Positions 25,046 through 63,642 of a stretch of DNA of 64,000 nucleotides are shown here, one piece after another. Source of the stretch: an uncultured Pseudomonadota bacterium (GTDB lineage Bacteria > Pseudomonadota > Alphaproteobacteria > Rs-D84); assembly GCA_902781465.1 (NCBI GenBank), contig CACZJK010000003.1:12054-76053 (forward strand), written 5' to 3'. The notes under the pieces are model-generated. The model worked only from the letters and a program-made list of their open reading frames with translations, had not been told where the DNA came from and did not search any database. The stretch's first letter is position 1, and the number at the start of each line of letters is the position of its first letter. A program made the translations under genes and the position numbers.

Positions 25046-27496
25046 TTATTTTACTTCTATCGGTGGGAAACAATCGCCGCCACCATCTGGACAACAATTG
25101 AAACCTGCTTCACCCATATCTGTATATGTTTCGCCAGCACAGCAACCGTTTGTATCTGGGGCACTGCCGTCGTCACATGTTAAAACTTCTTCGGCAACAG
25201 CATTATTAGGCGTTTCCCAAGGATTCAACATATTGCCTTCGTCATCATATTGTAATCCAAGGATATCTTGTGCATATGCCTTTGATTGTTCTTCGTTTCC
25301 TGTGTATACTAAACCGTCTTCTTGATTCCAAGTCATAGAACCATATGTTTCTTGTTTCTTTTGTGATTGAGCTTGAATATTAGCGTTATAAGCATTTTGC
25401 TTCGCCATATTTTTAGACTGATAGTTTTGTGATTCACAATACGCCAAAACAGTTCTGTAATCATAACCAGATTCGCCCCAATTTGCGTTTTTATCAATCG
25501 TGATTTTACCATTACTGTCCTGGGTACAATATTGATTCAAGTTAAATGAACGTATTTGTCCACGCCATGAAGGATCATCTGCGCCAACAAATTCTACTTT
25601 CTTTAAGTCAGACCATTTACGACGGTGTTCGGAAGCATAGGTTGTAAATGCACATTTTTTACCAGGATTTTCTTCTTCATCACATGTGACAATCAAATCC
25701 ACAGGTGAATATACATTGATACGTGTTCCGGCGGCGATTGAAAACGGTGGAACTGTATTATCAATTGCATCTACTAATAATTTTTGTGTGATTTTATTCC
25801 ATGTGTTGATAATATCTTGTTTTGCCATTTCAGATGAACGAATTGTTCCTGATTGAACAATTGTATTATTATCCAAATCAATTTGATTTATAACTGTATC
25901 TGTAATAGGCGCAATCATATTAACCGCCGCAGGAACAAGTGCCGTTAATATTGGCATAAACATCTGTTCTACATAGTCTGTGCTGCCATGTCCAGGAACC
26001 CCCATACGACCTTGGGCATCCGCAGAATATGGATCTTGGCCTTCGTCAAAATTGAATTCTACGCCATCTGGACGAATAAATTGATACCATTTTATATTCA
26101 TACGACCGAATGCCTGATATGGCCCAGGTAATCTTCCGTCCAAATATCCCATTAATAATGTTCCAGTTGGCAATATTATTGTGCGTCCATCATCAGAAAA
26201 AACGTTTCTGTCCACTGTTGCACGAACAGGTATGCTATAATTTTTATCTGGATCACAGTTTTGTCCTGATTTATCACAGCCATAAACACTTGGGTCTGCG
26301 CGAACTTCGGATACAATAGTCGCAGGAATTGGTTTAAATTGACGTAATATAAATGTTCTGTCGAATGGACGTGAAGATGTGACAGATTCGCTGCCAAAAC
26401 CAGAACCTTTCAAGGCTGCTTTATCAAAATCTTTTTGTTCGCCCCAAACAATGCCACCGTCAACACCATTACCACCTGCATCCCAATTTGCGTTTTCACC
26501 AAAAGTACCATTGCTGGCCGGTGCAACAAAAGATTTAGGAGTACCTAATTGAGGAACACTTAAACTGCGTGAACGAACATTTCTGTATCCGATATGATCT
26601 GAATCTGTACCGATTTTAGAACCGTCTTCTAATGAAGTTATAATGCCTGTTGTTATATCATAACGACCAGTTGGGTTAGAACAGTCTTTGTCAGAAAAAG
26701 GATGGAAATAGTTTGCACCACGTTCTGGTTTTATCCAACCAATTTGACGACCGGATTGATCGTATCCAGGAATTGCGAATTCAGAACATTTTTCAGGTGG
26801 CAAAACAAATTCTTTTTCTTCCTTTAACGGGTTTTTCACAGCAATAGTTTTTATTTCTTCCGCTGCTTTTTCAACGATTGGTTCTGGTTCGTATTCGATT
26901 TCGTCTTCTTCTTCTTTAACCTCTTCAACAACAGGTTTTGGTGCAGGAGCAACTTTTTTTTCAATGACAGGTTCTGCCTTTTTTTCTTCCTGTTTCCAAG
27001 AAGAATATTTTACTTCTACTTCCTGAGTCTTTACGATTTCAGATTGAGATTCAATAAACCAATTTATTTTCAGTATTGTATCAGATTCTTTTTGAACAAC
27101 GCTTGGGCGATAGATAACATTGATAATACAAACATCGGTTAAATTATCGCAATTATCAGTTGTAGTTATGCCATCAACATCGATATCGATATCTTTGATA
27201 ACAACAGGTGCATTGACAGCCACATTGATGCTTTTGCTGACTGATTTTCCAACCTCTGTCCCGGTTAAATCAATTGTTTCAGGATTGACAGTAAAAGAAA
27301 CATTTTCATTCATATTATCGGCAGATGTTGTCCCGGATTTATGTCCCAACAACAAAACCAACAATATAATAACAACAACAAAAGCCGCGCCCAACAATAT
27401 CCATTGGATATGTTTTGGAGTGTTTGTTTTAAATTCTTTAAATTGTTGTTTTAAACTTTTCATTTCTTTCTTTACTGTATTCTTACCACATGACAA
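25046..27496 (-). CDS. virB10: Type IV secretion system protein VirB10/TrbI family, unusually long (816 aa)
   Basis: N-terminal TM (WILLGAAFVVVIILLVLLL), Pro/Glu/Lys-rich linker (APAPKPVVEEVKEEEDEIEYEPEP), TrbI-like core (ILPTGTLLMGYLDG...QGRMGVPGHGSTDYVEQMFMPILTALV). There is an extra ~200-aa C-terminal extension ending in a Cys-rich tail. An alternative ATG at 27463 would remove the 25-nt overlap with virB9. Confidence 0.85.
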   Translation of the reverse strand: MSCGKNTVKKEMKSLKQQFKEFKTNTPKHIQWILLGAAFVVVIILLVLLLGHKSGTTSADNMNENVSFTVNPETIDLTGTEVGKSVSKSINVAVNAPVVIKDIDIDVDGITTTDNCDNLTDVCIINVIYRPSVVQKESDTILKINWFIESQSEIVKTQEVEVKYSSWKQEEKKAEPVIEKKVAPAPKPVVEEVKEEEDEIEYEPEPIVEKAAEEIKTIAVKNPLKEEKEFVLPPEKCSEFAIPGYDQSGRQIGWIKPERGANYFHPFSDKDCSNPTGRYDITTGIITSLEDGSKIGTDSDHIGYRNVRSRSLSVPQLGTPKSFVAPASNGTFGENANWDAGGNGVDGGIVWGEQKDFDKAALKGSGFGSESVTSSRPFDRTFILRQFKPIPATIVSEVRADPSVYGCDKSGQNCDPDKNYSIPVRATVDRNVFSDDGRTIILPTGTLLMGYLDGRLPGPYQAFGRMNIKWYQFIRPDGVEFNFDEGQDPYSADAQGRMGVPGHGSTDYVEQMFMPILTALVPAAVNMIAPITDTVINQIDLDNNTIVQSGTIRSSEMAKQDIINTWNKITQKLLVDAIDNTVPPFSIAAGTRINVYSPVDLIVTCDEEENPGKKCAFTTYASEHRRKWSDLKKVEFVGADDPSWRGQIRSFNLNQYCTQDSNGKITIDKNANWGESGYDYRTVLAYCESQNYQSKNMAKQNAYNANIQAQSQKKQETYGSMTWNQEDGLVYTGNEEQSKAYAQDILGLQYDDEGNMLNPWETPNNAVAEEVLTCDDGSAPDTNGCCAGETYTDMGEAGFNCCPDGGGDCFPPIEVK

Positions 27497-28914
27497 CTTG
27501 CGCCACTGAACTTTAACAATTGATCACACAATTTTTGTGCCGTATCAATATCTGATAAAGGTCCAATGCGTAAACGATATAAACGTGCAGTTACAGAATC
27601 AGAACCTAAATCACCAACGCCTTGTTCGTCAACTGCAAAGAATACGCTGTTTTTGTATGGGCTTAAAATACCTTCGCCATCGTCGCCACTGAATTTAGCC
27701 AACAAACTGGTCCAGTAATCATTTAATGCCTTTACAGATGTATCTGATTTCAATTCAATTGCAACACCTGTTTGATTGCTGGTTATCAATGGAATATTTG
27801 TTTGTGGCAGATAAGAACCCGCAGTCATACGTGCAGTTGGAATCATTGATGCGCCAGATGCACTTGGCATAACATCTGGTTGATTAGAAACATACATTGG
27901 TGTAGCACTGTAATCCATAATGCTTTGATCGATAGCATATTGTTCATCGCCATAGGCCATCGCGTTCAAAGATTGATTCGCCGCCATTGATTGTGCAACA
28001 TTTGCTTCTGCCAAAGCCATAACAGATGCTGTATCTGCAATCAAGAAAGGTTTAGCGCGTTTTTTAATACATACAATTCTTTGCCCACTGCGCAATACCA
28101 TATCACCAACCGCTTCGACAATCAGTAAACGACCATCTTCGCCGTCTGTACGGAAACCAACAGGGCTTTCGCCACCTTCGACCAACAAAGATACAACAGG
28201 ACGTTGAGTCATAGAAATAACTTTGTCGCCGAAATCGATATAAGTGAATATGCGGTCGCGCCATACACGTTCAGGTGCGATAACATAATCATCTGGGTTT
28301 GGAACGAAAATATCCAAATCGAAACGGAATTCAGACGGATCAATTTTCATAGTTTTAATCCATCCATAATCTTCGCCATCAACACCAACTGTGGAAGTTG
28401 TTGGGGCGGCCTTTGTAAATATAGAACCCATAGAACCAGCAGTCGCGGCACTGTTCGCAGCAATTGCGTTTGAAGCACCCGCCAAAGAAACATCAACCTG
28501 GGAATAAGTGATTTCACTGGAATTCACAGGATATGCGCGTAAATAGAAAATGTAAGTATTACCAGATTGGCCAGTCACAATCATATTTGTATCATTACCC
28601 TGGTTCGCAGATGCTGGTGTAATATACATTGTGCGGCCACCTTTATCAGGTTTTACTTCAAATAAACCGTCATTACCAACAACCGCATCAGCAATCTTTT
28701 CGCCATTTGGTAATGTGACCAAAGTAGCCATACCTGCGCGGGTTTTGATTGGTAAAACCGTTCCTGTTGACCAAGTAAGGTTTGCATAACCTGGCTTAGT
28801 AGAACCGGCAGACATATTTGCGTTTGGGTTGTCCCAGGCCGCCTGAAAATCAGCCATTGCCGGGAAAGCACAGCATAACACAGCCAACAAAGAAATACTA
28901 AATTTAAAAGTCAT
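27472..28914 (-). CDS. virB9: Type IV secretion system protein VirB9/TrbG/CagX family fused to a C-terminal SPOR-like domain (480 aa)
   Basis: Signal peptide. VirB9 signature region ITPASANQGNDTNMIVTGQSGNTYIFYLRAYP. The C-terminal ~95 aa show a SPOR-like pattern (LYRLRIGPLSDIDTAQKLCDQL...CHVVRIQ). Confidence 0.85.
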   Translation of the reverse strand: MTFKFSISLLAVLCCAFPAMADFQAAWDNPNANMSAGSTKPGYANLTWSTGTVLPIKTRAGMATLVTLPNGEKIADAVVGNDGLFEVKPDKGGRTMYITPASANQGNDTNMIVTGQSGNTYIFYLRAYPVNSSEITYSQVDVSLAGASNAIAANSAATAGSMGSIFTKAAPTTSTVGVDGEDYGWIKTMKIDPSEFRFDLDIFVPNPDDYVIAPERVWRDRIFTYIDFGDKVISMTQRPVVSLLVEGGESPVGFRTDGEDGRLLIVEAVGDMVLRSGQRIVCIKKRAKPFLIADTASVMALAEANVAQSMAANQSLNAMAYGDEQYAIDQSIMDYSATPMYVSNQPDVMPSASGASMIPTARMTAGSYLPQTNIPLITSNQTGVAIELKSDTSVKALNDYWTSLLAKFSGDDGEGILSPYKNSVFFAVDEQGVGDLGSDSVTARLYRLRIGPLSDIDTAQKLCDQLLKFSGASCHVVRIQ

Positions 28915-31852: not shown

Positions 31853-31926
31853 AGGGGCTTAGTTCAACGGTAGAATATCGGTCTCCAAAACCGCGGATGA
31901 GGGTTCGATTCCTTCAGCCCCTGCCA
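31853..31926 (+). tRNA. trnW: tRNA-Trp (anticodon CCA)
   Basis: 74 nt. Acceptor AGGGGCT/AGCCCCT, D arm GTTC/GAAT, anticodon loop CTCCAAA, T arm GAGGG-TTCGATT-CCTTC, encoded CCA. Confidence 0.93.
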
Positions 31927-31965: not shown

Positions 31966-32145
31966 ATGAAAAAAATAATAGACTTTATAAAATCAGTACG
32001 CAGCGAATGGTTCAAAATCGTTTGGCCAACGCGTGAAACTGTTATTCATACTACATTTATGATATTGTTATTTTCTGGTTTGGCCGCTTTGTTCTTTTTT
32101 GTTGTAGACAGCATTTTAAATGCTTTGGTGAACTGGATATTCTAA
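31966..32145 (+). CDS. secE: Preprotein translocase subunit SecE (59 aa; below the ORF-track cutoff)
   Basis: MKKIIDFIKSVRSEWFKIVWPTRETVIHTTFMILLFSGLAALFFFVVDSILNALVNWIF. Has the KV.WP.R.E motif plus a single TM. Canonical position between tRNA-Trp and nusG. Confidence 0.88.
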   Translation: MKKIIDFIKSVRSEWFKIVWPTRETVIHTTFMILLFSGLAALFFFVVDSILNALVNWIF

Positions 32146-62679: not shown

Positions 62680-62708
62680 TTGCACAGATGATAATTTGTC
62701 TATATAAT
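62680..62708 (+). promoter_or_regulatory. Sigma70-like promoter (TTGCAC-N17-TATAAT) for the A2/B2 leader
   Basis: -35 at 62680-62685 and -10 at 62703-62708. Same architecture as the A1 promoter. Confidence 0.5.
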
Positions 62709-62714
62709 TTACTA

Positions 62715-62919
62715 TGAATCATAAAAACAATGGTTCTGGGCTTAGAAATCCCATACAAAACCGTCTGCGCAGACGTTAAATGCTCCAACCCTCCATGGTT
62801 GGATGGTGGTGAATATATTGAATAATCCACGCAATTCGTTTTGTATTGTTTCTAACATCCAACCGCCTGTTTCTATGATTTGGCGGTATTTTTGTTGCCA
62901 AAAAAGGAAGGGAAACAAC
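62715..62919 (+). promoter_or_regulatory. Long structured 5' leader (candidate attenuator/riboswitch), copy 2
   Basis: Hairpin cgtctgcgcagacg (62762-62775). Segment 1 tccaacc (62784-62790). Segment 2 ggttggatg (62797-62805). Segment 3 catccaacc (62856-62864), overlapping the terminator arm. Confidence 0.5.
62862..62896 (+). terminator. Leader terminator hairpin plus T-run (copy 2)
   Basis: ACCGCC (62862-62867) pairs with GGCGGT (62882-62887), followed by ATTTTTGTT. Lies 24 nt upstream of the A2 ATG. Confidence 0.45.
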
Positions 62920-63642
62920 ATGAAACGAATAATATTGATATTGGTTGCGTTTACAACAATAAATGCACATTCACAAACAGAAACATTAAATTGGTATATT
63001 GACGGACAAACCTATGCAACAACAACCTGTGAAAGCGGTGGCGATGTCCTTTTGCCAACCAGCCCAACCAAACGCGGTTATACATTTATGGGGTGGAGTC
63101 TTTACACTCCGATAGAGTATTTGGAGAGTACCGGGACACAGTGGATTGATACGGGATATATTCCAAATTTAAATACAAAAATAAAATTATCCGTAGTTTC
63201 CAATAATATATCAAGCAATGCAATTTCCGGAGAAGCTTGGAATTATAGAACAACTTTATTAATGTTTGAAAATGCCACTGTTAAATGGCATTTATGTAGC
63301 AACGGCTCAGTAACAAGTTCACTTATAAGTTCAAATACTGTTTGTAATATAGAAGCGGAAAATGGGGTACTGATATTAAATAACCAGATATATTCTTGTT
63401 ATAAATTAACATCCTTTTCTGCTTATACAAATATGCGCATATTTTTTAACGGAAATAGCTCTAGTAAAATCAAATTATATTATTTTAAAATCTACGATAA
63501 CAACACTCTCGTTCGTGATTTTATTCCTGTTCTTGACAAAGATGGTGCCCCATGTATGTATGACAAAGTGGAAAATAAATTTTATTACAACGCCGGCACC
63601 GGTCAATTTATCGCCGGGCCAATCATAGGGGCAGAACAATGA
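62920..63642 (+). CDS. Secreted protein A2: List-Bact-repeat-like N-domain plus variable-core domain
   Basis: The ATG at 62920 (RBS AAGGAAGGG) gives signal peptide MKRIILILVAFTTINAHS. GYTFMGW motif, YTPIEYLESTGTQWIDTGYIP, and C-terminal LVRDFIPVLDKDGAPCMYDKVENKFYYNAGTGQFIAGP shared with A1. The track ORF 62803 extends into the leader. Confidence 0.75.
   Translation: MKRIILILVAFTTINAHSQTETLNWYIDGQTYATTTCESGGDVLLPTSPTKRGYTFMGWSLYTPIEYLESTGTQWIDTGYIPNLNTKIKLSVVSNNISSNAISGEAWNYRTTLLMFENATVKWHLCSNGSVTSSLISSNTVCNIEAENGVLILNNQIYSCYKLTSFSAYTNMRIFFNGNSSSKIKLYYFKIYDNNTLVRDFIPVLDKDGAPCMYDKVENKFYYNAGTGQFIAGPIIGAEQ

Follow-up and report, generated by a model that had tools for sequence, protein, structure and literature searches.

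A candidate terminator/antiterminator leader RNA family upstream of secreted-protein genes in Rs-D84 alphaproteobacteria

Results

A leader RNA with two mutually exclusive folds

The DNA analyzed here, called the window throughout, comprises 64,000 nucleotides (nt) of contig CACZJK010000003.1 (assembly GCA_902781465.1, positions 12,054 to 76,053 of the forward strand) from an uncultured, low-GC alphaproteobacterium of the lineage Rs-D84 related closely to Candidatus Enterousia, and it carries two copies of one leader RNA, copy 2 (W2) on the plus strand before the gene A2 and copy 1 on the minus strand before A1/B1. The leader is interpreted, with a probability of roughly 0.75, as a cis-acting RNA of a new family that controls premature transcription termination through a terminator and an antiterminator. 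At least 118 distinct members were obtained after duplicate removal with a covariance model and one pattern scan, with an overall length of about 180 nt and a multi-helix core of 130–155 nt. The helices fall into two sets that exclude each other and overlap the terminator: the OFF set contains P3 (segment 1 with segment 2), P1a, P1b and the terminator, the ON set contains the segment 2:segment 3 helix, P5 and Px, and P0, P2 and P4 are common to both. The parts of the two copies are given below, the promoter-like region of copy 2 being read directly from the sequence.

62680-62919, plus strand: copy 2 leader (W2), between an open reading frame (ORF) of 136 amino acids (aa) and A2
62680-62708, plus strand: promoter-like region, TTGCAC at 62680-62685, 17-nt spacer, TATAAT at 62703-62708
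62716-62736, plus strand: hairpin P0, GAAUCAU with AUGGUUC, at the 5' end of the transcript and adjoining the G-run
62737-62752, plus strand: local hairpin Px, UGGG at 62737-62740 with UCCC at 62749-62752, its loop holding the 5' strand of P1a
62743-62749, plus strand: 5' strand of P1a, UAGAAAU, pairing with GUUUCUA at 62848-62854 as the outer half of a long-range clamp
62755-62761, plus strand: 5' strand of P1b, ACAAAAC, pairing with GUUUUGU at 62838-62844 as the inner half of the clamp and extended to 62753 in the minimum free energy (MFE) fold
62762-62775, plus strand: hairpin P2, CGUCU-GCGC-AGACG, stem CGTCT at 62762-62766 and AGACG at 62771-62775
62783-62789, plus strand: segment 1, CTCCAAC (RNA CUCCAAC)
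62797-62806, plus strand: segment 2, GGTTGGATGG (RNA GGUUGGAUGG)
62783-62806, plus strand: hairpin P3 of segments 1 and 2, register UCCAACC/GGUUGGA in copy 2
62806-62830, plus strand: hairpin P4, G/UGG with CCA/C, its loop carrying a GAAUA-N4-GAAUA direct repeat
62811-62815 and 62820-62824, plus strand: GAAUA half-sites of the P4 loop, GAAUA-UAUU-GAAUA
62831-62849, plus strand: hairpin P5, GCAAU at 62831-62835 with AUUGU at 62845-62849, its loop being the 3' strand of P1b
62856-62864, plus strand: segment 3, CATCCAACC (RNA CAUCCAACC), pairing with segment 2 (62797-62805), its last bases forming the 5' side of the terminator stem
62862-62895, plus strand: predicted intrinsic terminator, ACCGCC at 62862-62867, 14-nt loop, GGCGGT (RNA GGCGGU) at 62882-62887, tail ATTTTTGT (RNA AUUUUUGU)
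62820-62832, plus strand, and 31543-31532, minus strand: spacer block GAATAA-N-CACGC shared by the copies, GAATAATCCACGC in copy 2 and GAATAAGCACGC in copy 1
31710-31467, minus strand: copy 1 leader, the same leader RNA as copy 2
31677-31672, minus strand: TATAAT of copy 1, with P0 at 31665-31649 and GGGG at 31648-31645
31642-31636 with 31512-31506, minus strand: P1a of copy 1
31629-31621 with 31525-31517, minus strand: P1b of copy 1
31620-31607, minus strand: P2 of copy 1, CGTCC at 31620-31616 and GGACG at 31611-31607
31598-31592, 31586-31577 and 31504-31496, minus strand: segments 1, 2 and 3 of copy 1
31533-31529 with 31515-31511, minus strand: P5 of copy 1, preceded by a P4 with an insert hairpin
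31499-31475, minus strand: terminator of copy 1

Structural alignment and covariation supported both folds. The alignment comprised 64 sequences, was built from anchors and padded with N, and left out sequences that MAFFT had shifted (four, then two); MAFFT alone misaligns the variable helices. The OFF-state structure (P0, Px, P1a, P1b, P2, P3, P4 and terminator) is 97.1% paired, a percentage inflated by helices that were placed sequence by sequence, with double changes in 48 of its 59 pairs; it scores 0.595 for covariation, whereas shuffles give 0.164, none in 500 reaching the observed value, and controls with slid partners give at most 0.095. The ON-state structure (P0, Px, P2, segment 2:segment 3, P4 and P5) is 97.2% paired, inflated likewise, and scores 0.506 against 0.160 for its controls. 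In addition, both leaders of the window fold about 4 standard deviations better than their dinucleotide shuffles.

A sequence-only reading of the window had proposed from the two copies alone a conserved RNA structure with an attenuator layout of 1:2 helix, 2:3 helix and terminator, and had called for homologues and a covariation check; the family collected here now supports that layout in both of its folds, with scores far above those of shuffles. The TTGCAC-N17-TATAAT promoter, the first hairpin (P2 here), segments 1, 2 and 3 in that order, and the terminator ACCGCC/GGCGGT with a T-run before the A2 start (ATG at 62920) all lie where they had been placed. The two compensatory differences between the copies are real, namely T..A in copy 2 against C..G in copy 1 in the first hairpin and GGATG/CATCC against GGAGG/CCTCC in the 2:3 helix, and the GAATAA-N-CACGC block does occur in both spacers. 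The match of the layout to copy 1 held as well, with the correction that copy 1 runs on the minus strand. The RNA is larger than had been described, as P0, Px, P1a/P1b, P4 and P5 had been missed.

From 5' to 3', the members share a −10-like box about 10 nt upstream of P0, then P0, a GGGG run, the 5' strand of P1a (7 nt), ACC followed by C or U, the 5' strand of P1b (6–10 nt, highly variable), P2, an A-rich linker, segment 1 (CUCCAAC), a loop, segment 2 (GGUUGGAGGG) and P4, the loop of which has the consensus gaa...a..A. The 3' part continues with the 5' strand of P5 (R-C-A/U-A-U), UU, the 3' strand of P1b, the 3' strand of P5 (A-U-U/A-G-U), the 3' strand of P1a, segment 3 (CCUCCAACC) and a terminator made of AACC plus GCC and a downstream GGCGGUU with a U-run. 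In a promoter scan of copy 2 the TATAAT box was recovered with shifted −35 alternatives, and the −35 hexamer TTGCAC matches the consensus at three of six positions. The direct repeat of this loop resembles a two-part recognition site; some members, copy 1 included (31573-31535, minus strand), carry an extra hairpin inserted exactly between the two GAAUA half-sites.

Covariation of the individual helices

Of all the helices, the long-range pair P1a and P1b shows the strongest covariation. In P1a, all seven positions are complementary in 111 of 117 members when a fixed register is counted from the 3' end of segment 3; 99.4% of the cells are canonical (99.7% are paired in the 64-sequence alignment) and double changes occur at all seven pairs. 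In P1b, which is also present in the MFE fold of copy 2, duplexes of cognate strands average 7.9 base pairs (bp) against 4.8 bp for strands taken from different members, with double changes in nine pairs. All nine pairs of P0 covary, with 95.5% of cells paired and a cognate mean of 8.35 bp against 5.25 bp for non-cognate duplexes. All eight alignment pairs of P2 covary, with a mean of 5.4 bp against 4.05 bp in shuffles, and the stem position at which the two copies differ is CG in 22 members, UA in 11, AU in 8 and GC in 6. P4 shows double changes at all six pairs, with 3.7 bp in cognate and 3.2 bp in control duplexes. P5 is 98.8% paired; 73 members have AU as its middle pair and 38 have UA, without a single mixed case, and the two forms can occur in one genome, as copy 1 has UA and copy 2 AU, and locus L028 carries both. 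The last two bases of P5 are common to the 3' strand of P1a. The terminator has 93.8% of its cells paired, one covarying stem position (GC 28, AU 27), a cognate mean of 7.0 bp against 6.5 bp in controls, and at least five T in the 8-nt tail in 89 of 111 members.

The G-run at the 5' end covaries with the CC(C/U)N found 3' of the 5' strand of P1a: GAGG goes with CCU in 17 of 17 members and GGAG with CUC in 3 of 3. This local hairpin, Px, has one base in common with P1a and its loop is the 5' strand of P1a. RNAfold and RNAalifold had instead paired the 5' GGGG to CUCC in segment 3; Px replaces that prediction, because the 18 GAGG variants are compensated in the local CCU and not in segment 3.

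The segment 2:segment 3 helix is 100% paired, with double changes in five of its nine pairs. In copy 2, and specifically there, G8 of segment 2 is changed to U together with C2 to A in segment 3, segment 1 remaining uncompensated, and in L049 the change of segment 2 G9 to U is matched by segment 3 C1 to A at a position outside P3. Segments 1, 2 and 3 have changed together in L005 (CUCCUGUC, GGCGGGAGG and CCUCCUGCC) and in L007 (CCCUGACC, GGUCGGGGGG and CCCCGACC), while in L127 all three segments are extended by an inserted base pair. The changes in these five sequences, which were found through their protein or the model, indicate that segment 1:segment 2 and segment 2:segment 3 are both under selection. 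As AACC of segment 3 contributes to four of the seven pairs in the terminator, the segment 2:segment 3 helix is assigned as the antiterminator.

Energetics and proposed mechanism

The energetics were computed with a nearest-neighbour model without pseudoknots. Of 111 members, all have P3 in their unconstrained MFE fold, 109 have P1a and 107 the terminator, and forcing the segment 2:segment 3 helix costs 13.1 ± 4.1 kcal/mol on average over the 111 members, so that thermodynamics as modelled would favour the terminated state. When the 5' clamp strands are taken away, the segment 2:segment 3 state is ahead by 1.6 kcal/mol (85 of 111 members) as segment 3 emerges, and P3 with the terminator is ahead by 2.7 kcal/mol once the terminator is complete. 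The regulated step is probably the formation of the clamp as opposed to its being kept open by Px, P5 and an effector, because the 3' module of segments 1–3 and the terminator is nearly isoenergetic by itself and the clamp decides in the model.

The proposed sequence of events would start with transcription about 8–10 nt downstream of the TATAAT box. In the OFF state, P3, P1a and P1b would form and leave segment 3 free, so that its AACC would join GCC as the terminator stem and transcription would stop before A2. In the ON state, segment 2 would leave segment 1 and pair with segment 3 over 9 bp, closing a three-way junction with P4 and P5 and removing four of the seven terminator pairs, and the 5' G-run would fold locally as Px. 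The P1a/P1b clamp, worth about 10 kcal/mol, would tip the near-isoenergetic 3' module towards OFF. As candidate effectors, a small-molecule signal and an RNA-binding protein at the GAAUA-N4-GAAUA loop of P4 appear about equally likely.

Size and distribution of the family

Members were collected from two sources. Upstream of 11 of the first 49 A-type loci, GGTTGG...CCAACC was found at the same spacing, and a covariance model (R1) built from 14 sequences recognized 17–18 members among 80 protein-anchored genome loci at 66–124 bits, all of them in alphaproteobacterial metagenome-assembled genomes (MAGs). Metagenome contigs were searched with one pattern scan, the pattern of which fixes segments 1–3, and gave at least 120 loci, about 100 of which R1 confirmed at 47–120 bits. 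Pattern loci L083, L085, L086, L099 and others (L-numbers are the labels of the collected loci) were discarded as chance matches in high-GC coding or unrelated sequence that R1 does not recognize. The members come from Candidatus Enterousia and order Rs-D84 genomes and from rumen and gut metagenomes. In the window, a search with filters off found no leader copy beyond the two.

Two matches from IMG/VR adjoin prophage tail genes. The viral contigs L081 (1-13164, IMG/VR UViG_3300024269_000278) and L082 carry phage tail sheath, tape-measure and baseplate-hub genes, followed by a PLD-like nuclease, an EcoRI-type methylase, the leader and the gene of a 316-aa signal-peptide protein; this gene order suggests that the leader lies at a prophage edge or on a moron-like cargo gene. 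Some loci carry a shorter form of this RNA, namely L090, L096, L104, L107 (two copies), L132, L141 (two copies), L147, L183 and L192; it has no P2, begins with GCGGGG or GUGAGG, and stands directly upstream of XRE-type helix-turn-helix genes (57–115 aa) and not of secreted-protein genes. Such XRE-type genes were found only next to this short variant, and none lies in the window.

Gene context and predicted regulon

The gene start lies 40–100 nt downstream of the leader, and 84 of the 99 ORFs that come first after a leader have an N-terminus resembling a signal peptide. Among 84 downstream proteins, Pfam assigned Flg_new to 34 and Ephrin_rec_like cysteine-rich repeats to 3, most of the others being without a domain. 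Relatives of the downstream protein, collected in the protein-anchored search, are almost all from Enterousia or uncultured (alpha)proteobacterium MAGs of rumen and gut. The genes next to the two leaders of the window are as follows.

62920-63642, plus strand: A2, predicted regulated gene of 240 aa, with a signal peptide, a Flg_new repeat and a C-terminal domain with YTPIEYLESTGTQ
from 63642, plus strand: B2, cysteine-rich, 3' of A2
31409-29712, minus strand: A1/B1, headed by copy 1; homologues of virB8, virB9/CagX and virB10/TrbI come next

Copy 1 accordingly heads an operon with virB8, virB9 and virB10. The proposed regulon therefore comprises secreted or surface proteins together with at least one such operon. 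That a single leader precedes dozens of genes for secreted proteins, as well as a type IV secretion operon, points to a shared signal for the surface and secretion repertoire, and identifying the effector would show what Rs-D84 organisms sense. A further and more speculative proposal is that the leader represents a new riboswitch class or RNA/protein antitermination system by which Rs-D84 bacteria (Candidatus Enterousia), which have reduced genomes and probably depend on other cells, could switch their entire secretome together with their type IV secretion machinery in response to one global signal. Candidatus Enterousia and Rs-D84 are uncultured gut bacteria with genomes below 1 Mb and without respiration and the tricarboxylic acid cycle (PMC12306168).

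Several further features were observed around the two loci. A1 is a single ORF of 565 aa that runs in frame into a second signal-peptide, cysteine-rich protein (MKNLLFIFLILPISAFADD...), whereas A2 and B2 are separate genes that overlap at ATGA (63639-63642); because copy 1 has the single ORF where copy 2 has two genes, A1/B1 would be either a gene fusion or a case of read-through of the A stop. The VirB10/TrbI homologue (25046-27496, minus strand) is unusually long at 816 aa and has a cysteine-rich C-terminal tail, and the VirB9/CagX homologue (27472-28914, minus strand) ends in a weak SPOR-like domain. A tRNA-Trp(CCA) gene (31853-31926, plus strand) stands some 150 nt away from the promoter of copy 1, in divergent orientation; beyond it come a small ORF at 31967 and a nusG, ribosomal-protein and rpoB/rpoC-like cluster, these names being assigned from ORF order and size. 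The C-terminal domain of A1 and A2 (YTPIEYLESTGTQ[YW]IDTG ... FIPVLD ... GxFY) matched no Pfam family and is widespread in Firmicutes gut MAGs; the Firmicutes carriers (L029–L080, from Clostridia, Erysipelotrichaceae and Bacilli MAGs) have neither the Flg_new N-terminus nor the leader RNA. Among these Firmicutes loci, which have only the C-terminal protein domain in common, R1 found no member.

Discussion

Alternative explanations

The interpretation as a terminator/antiterminator leader has to be weighed against several observations. Px with P1a and P5 with P1b could coexist as pseudoknots within a single fold, in place of belonging to two exclusive ones. Forcing the antiterminator fold brings a loss of about 13 kcal/mol relative to the terminator fold in the nearest-neighbour model, a penalty from which it follows that the ON state needs kinetic control or an effector. 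The terminator of copy 2 is modest, with a 6-bp stem and a 14-nt loop, and is not called by a simple consensus scan, which misses the terminators of this family because their loops exceed 8 nt; both termination and read-through at these loci are predicted events. Unpaired nucleotides that are strongly conserved outside segments 1–3 are few, fewer than in typical metabolite aptamers. As to the alignment, most metagenome members come from the pattern that fixes the segments, so that the variation in segments 1–3 rests on about six sequences; P0, P1b, P2, P4 and the terminator were placed in each sequence by best complementarity, which inflates the paired percentages; and the non-cognate controls cover P1b and P0 well, P4 and the terminator only weakly. 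The terminator/antiterminator leader is nevertheless the reading retained here, and two forms of it differ in the effector.

One possible though tentative form is a riboswitch for a metabolite or second messenger, in which a ligand would bind the core, made of the Px/P1a pseudoknot and the P2-P3-P4 junction, and set the balance between clamp with terminator and segment 2:segment 3. A helix-rich core of 130–155 nt, in which Px and P1a may make an H-type pseudoknot, and a terminator as expression platform are consistent with it, as are the near-isoenergetic 3' module expected of a tunable switch and the many copies before functionally related surface and secreted-protein genes, an arrangement known from the riboswitches for cyclic di-guanosine monophosphate (c-di-GMP). 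Two general marks of riboswitches, a covariation-supported structured domain in a 5' leader and an expression platform of mutually exclusive terminator and antiterminator, were both found. Speaking against it, conservation of the junction nucleotides is only moderate, no metabolite is suggested by the regulated genes, no known riboswitch model matched, and the family does not extend beyond one narrow lineage, the genomes of which are below 1 Mb. This last property is turned to advantage by the other form, which is likewise a candidate to be held loosely: protein-dependent antitermination or termination, in which an RNA-binding protein would pick the partner of segment 2, many copies per genome in one lineage being like regulon-specific protein/RNA systems. 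Such a protein might recognize the P4 loop with its GAAUA-N4-GAAUA repeat, or the conserved CGUC/GACG at the base of P2 together with the UAAA that comes next; both GAAUA/AAAUA half-sites persist in members in which an inserted hairpin separates them, and the base of the P2 stem is conserved in sequence (gtc..gac). Against this, no candidate protein was identified, and by inspection the layout is unlike the dual hexaloops of ANTAR, the RAT or the triplet repeats of TRAP/HutP.

Readings outside the terminator/antiterminator leader fared less well. An independent trans-acting small RNA (sRNA) of about 180 nt running from promoter to terminator, with its position upstream of genes incidental or secondary, is unlikely: it would account for the −10 box and terminator of its own, for the terminated transcript as the thermodynamic default and for the nearest Rfam match, sRNA-Xcc1, which is described as an sRNA, but the element is always co-oriented with a gene start at the short downstream distance given above, with no promoter noted between. 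Moreover, a plain sRNA has no use for a covariation-supported segment 2:segment 3 helix by which the terminator is destroyed, and the many divergent copies have variable helices and no conserved single-stranded seed beyond the internally pairing segments. A trp-type leader peptide, in which a ribosome on a short ORF would cover segment 1 and free segment 2, is very improbable and is rejected at the family level. Copy 2 does have a 21-codon ORF with its ATG at 62715 that ends at a TAA just 5' of segment 1, and AUG-GGGG is common at the boundary of P0 and the G-run; yet a start codon stands at that site in only 78 of 115 members, the ORFs range from 6 to 78 codons with stops scattered 5' of, within and 3' of the segments, and the variation in helix length is not in multiples of three.

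Lowest in credibility is a DNA-level repeat, that is an operator, the end of a mobile element or the remnant of a recent duplication. GGTTGGAGG and CCTCCAACC do form an inverted repeat that matches both strands. However, G-U pairs are frequent (for example, GU 39 in P0 and GU 22 in P5) and would be A-C mismatches on the other strand, which places the structure in the sense-strand RNA and not in DNA, and R1 scores the sense strand at 90–124 bits against about 18–22 bits for the antisense strand. Compensatory changes dominate over sequence conservation among the at least 118 members, and A1 and A2 have diverged to 42% amino-acid identity; because the flanking genes share only this much, the leader blocks are not remnants of a duplication of recent date, and the view of the sequence-only reading that they are selected is upheld.

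Comparison with known systems

In the window, only tRNAs pass the gathering scores of Rfam 15, and permissive scans of both copies and 28 other members gave no match to a riboswitch or leader class (c-di-GMP-I/II, T-box and others). No publication on an RNA motif in Rs-D84 or beside Listeria-Bacteroides-repeat genes was found in the literature. The family is thus a candidate for curation in Rfam and for orphan-riboswitch ligand hunting, and it supplies over 100 naturally occurring versions of a terminator switch, with compensatory changes behind each of the two alternative folds. That both conformations can be seen by covariation is rare, and the family would therefore, if the interpretation is true, lend itself as a model of a bistable RNA that is held by a long-range clamp.

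The sole recurrent sub-threshold match was sRNA-Xcc1 (RF02221), with 31.6 bits for W2, 30.8 for L015 and 24.5 for L005, all far below the gathering score of 53; at E ≤ 10 it matched neither copy 1 nor 26 other members, and BLAST of its consensus against plasmids returned nothing to compare. sRNA-Xcc1 has been described as an 88-nt sRNA (PMC2996969). The possible likeness lies in a 9-bp outer helix, G-rich on one strand and C-rich on the other, around two hairpins with a UUUGAG joiner, which lines up with segment 2:segment 3, P4 and P5; the cmscan alignment maps the three Xcc1 helices onto these, which have covariation support of their own, with several consensus pairs non-canonical there. sRNA-Xcc1, too, is located 5' of a gene (symE, in Xanthomonas integron cassettes). 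In contrast to the leader, it covers the 3' half only, without the 5' domain, and it stands alone at about 88 nt in integron cassettes, whereas the leader is about 180 nt long and precedes secreted-protein genes of Rs-D84. As only 3 of about 30 members match, this is a resemblance and not membership, and it is probably convergent or due to chance.

Among regulatory leaders, c-di-GMP-I (GEMM) and c-di-GMP-II riboswitches are similar in having a structured 5' leader with covarying helices and a strand common to an alternative helix and an intrinsic terminator. Their regulons comprise several copies per genome before adhesin, surface or secretion genes, as here. The leader family differs from them in its extra 5' long-range clamp (P1a/P1b) and in showing covariation in both alternative folds. 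With the trp and his attenuators it shares three segments and a terminator in which the 1:2, 2:3 and 3:4 pairings are mutually exclusive and 2:3 is the antiterminator, but it has no conserved leader peptide or regulatory codons and possesses the additional conserved helices P0, Px, P1a, P1b, P4 and P5. In T-box, ANTAR, RAT/BglG, PyrR and TRAP/HutP systems, a trans factor acting on the nascent leader decides between terminator and antiterminator, as one form of the present proposal would have it, and by analogy with the protein-antitermination leaders the doubled GAAUA could be a protein site; inspection of the alignment revealed no dual hexaloop hairpins, RAT hairpin or (G/U)AG triplet arrays, GAAUA-N4-GAAUA being the only repeat seen. 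Taken against these systems, the leader, which is absent from Rfam, is best read as a new family of riboswitch-like or transcription-attenuation RNA.

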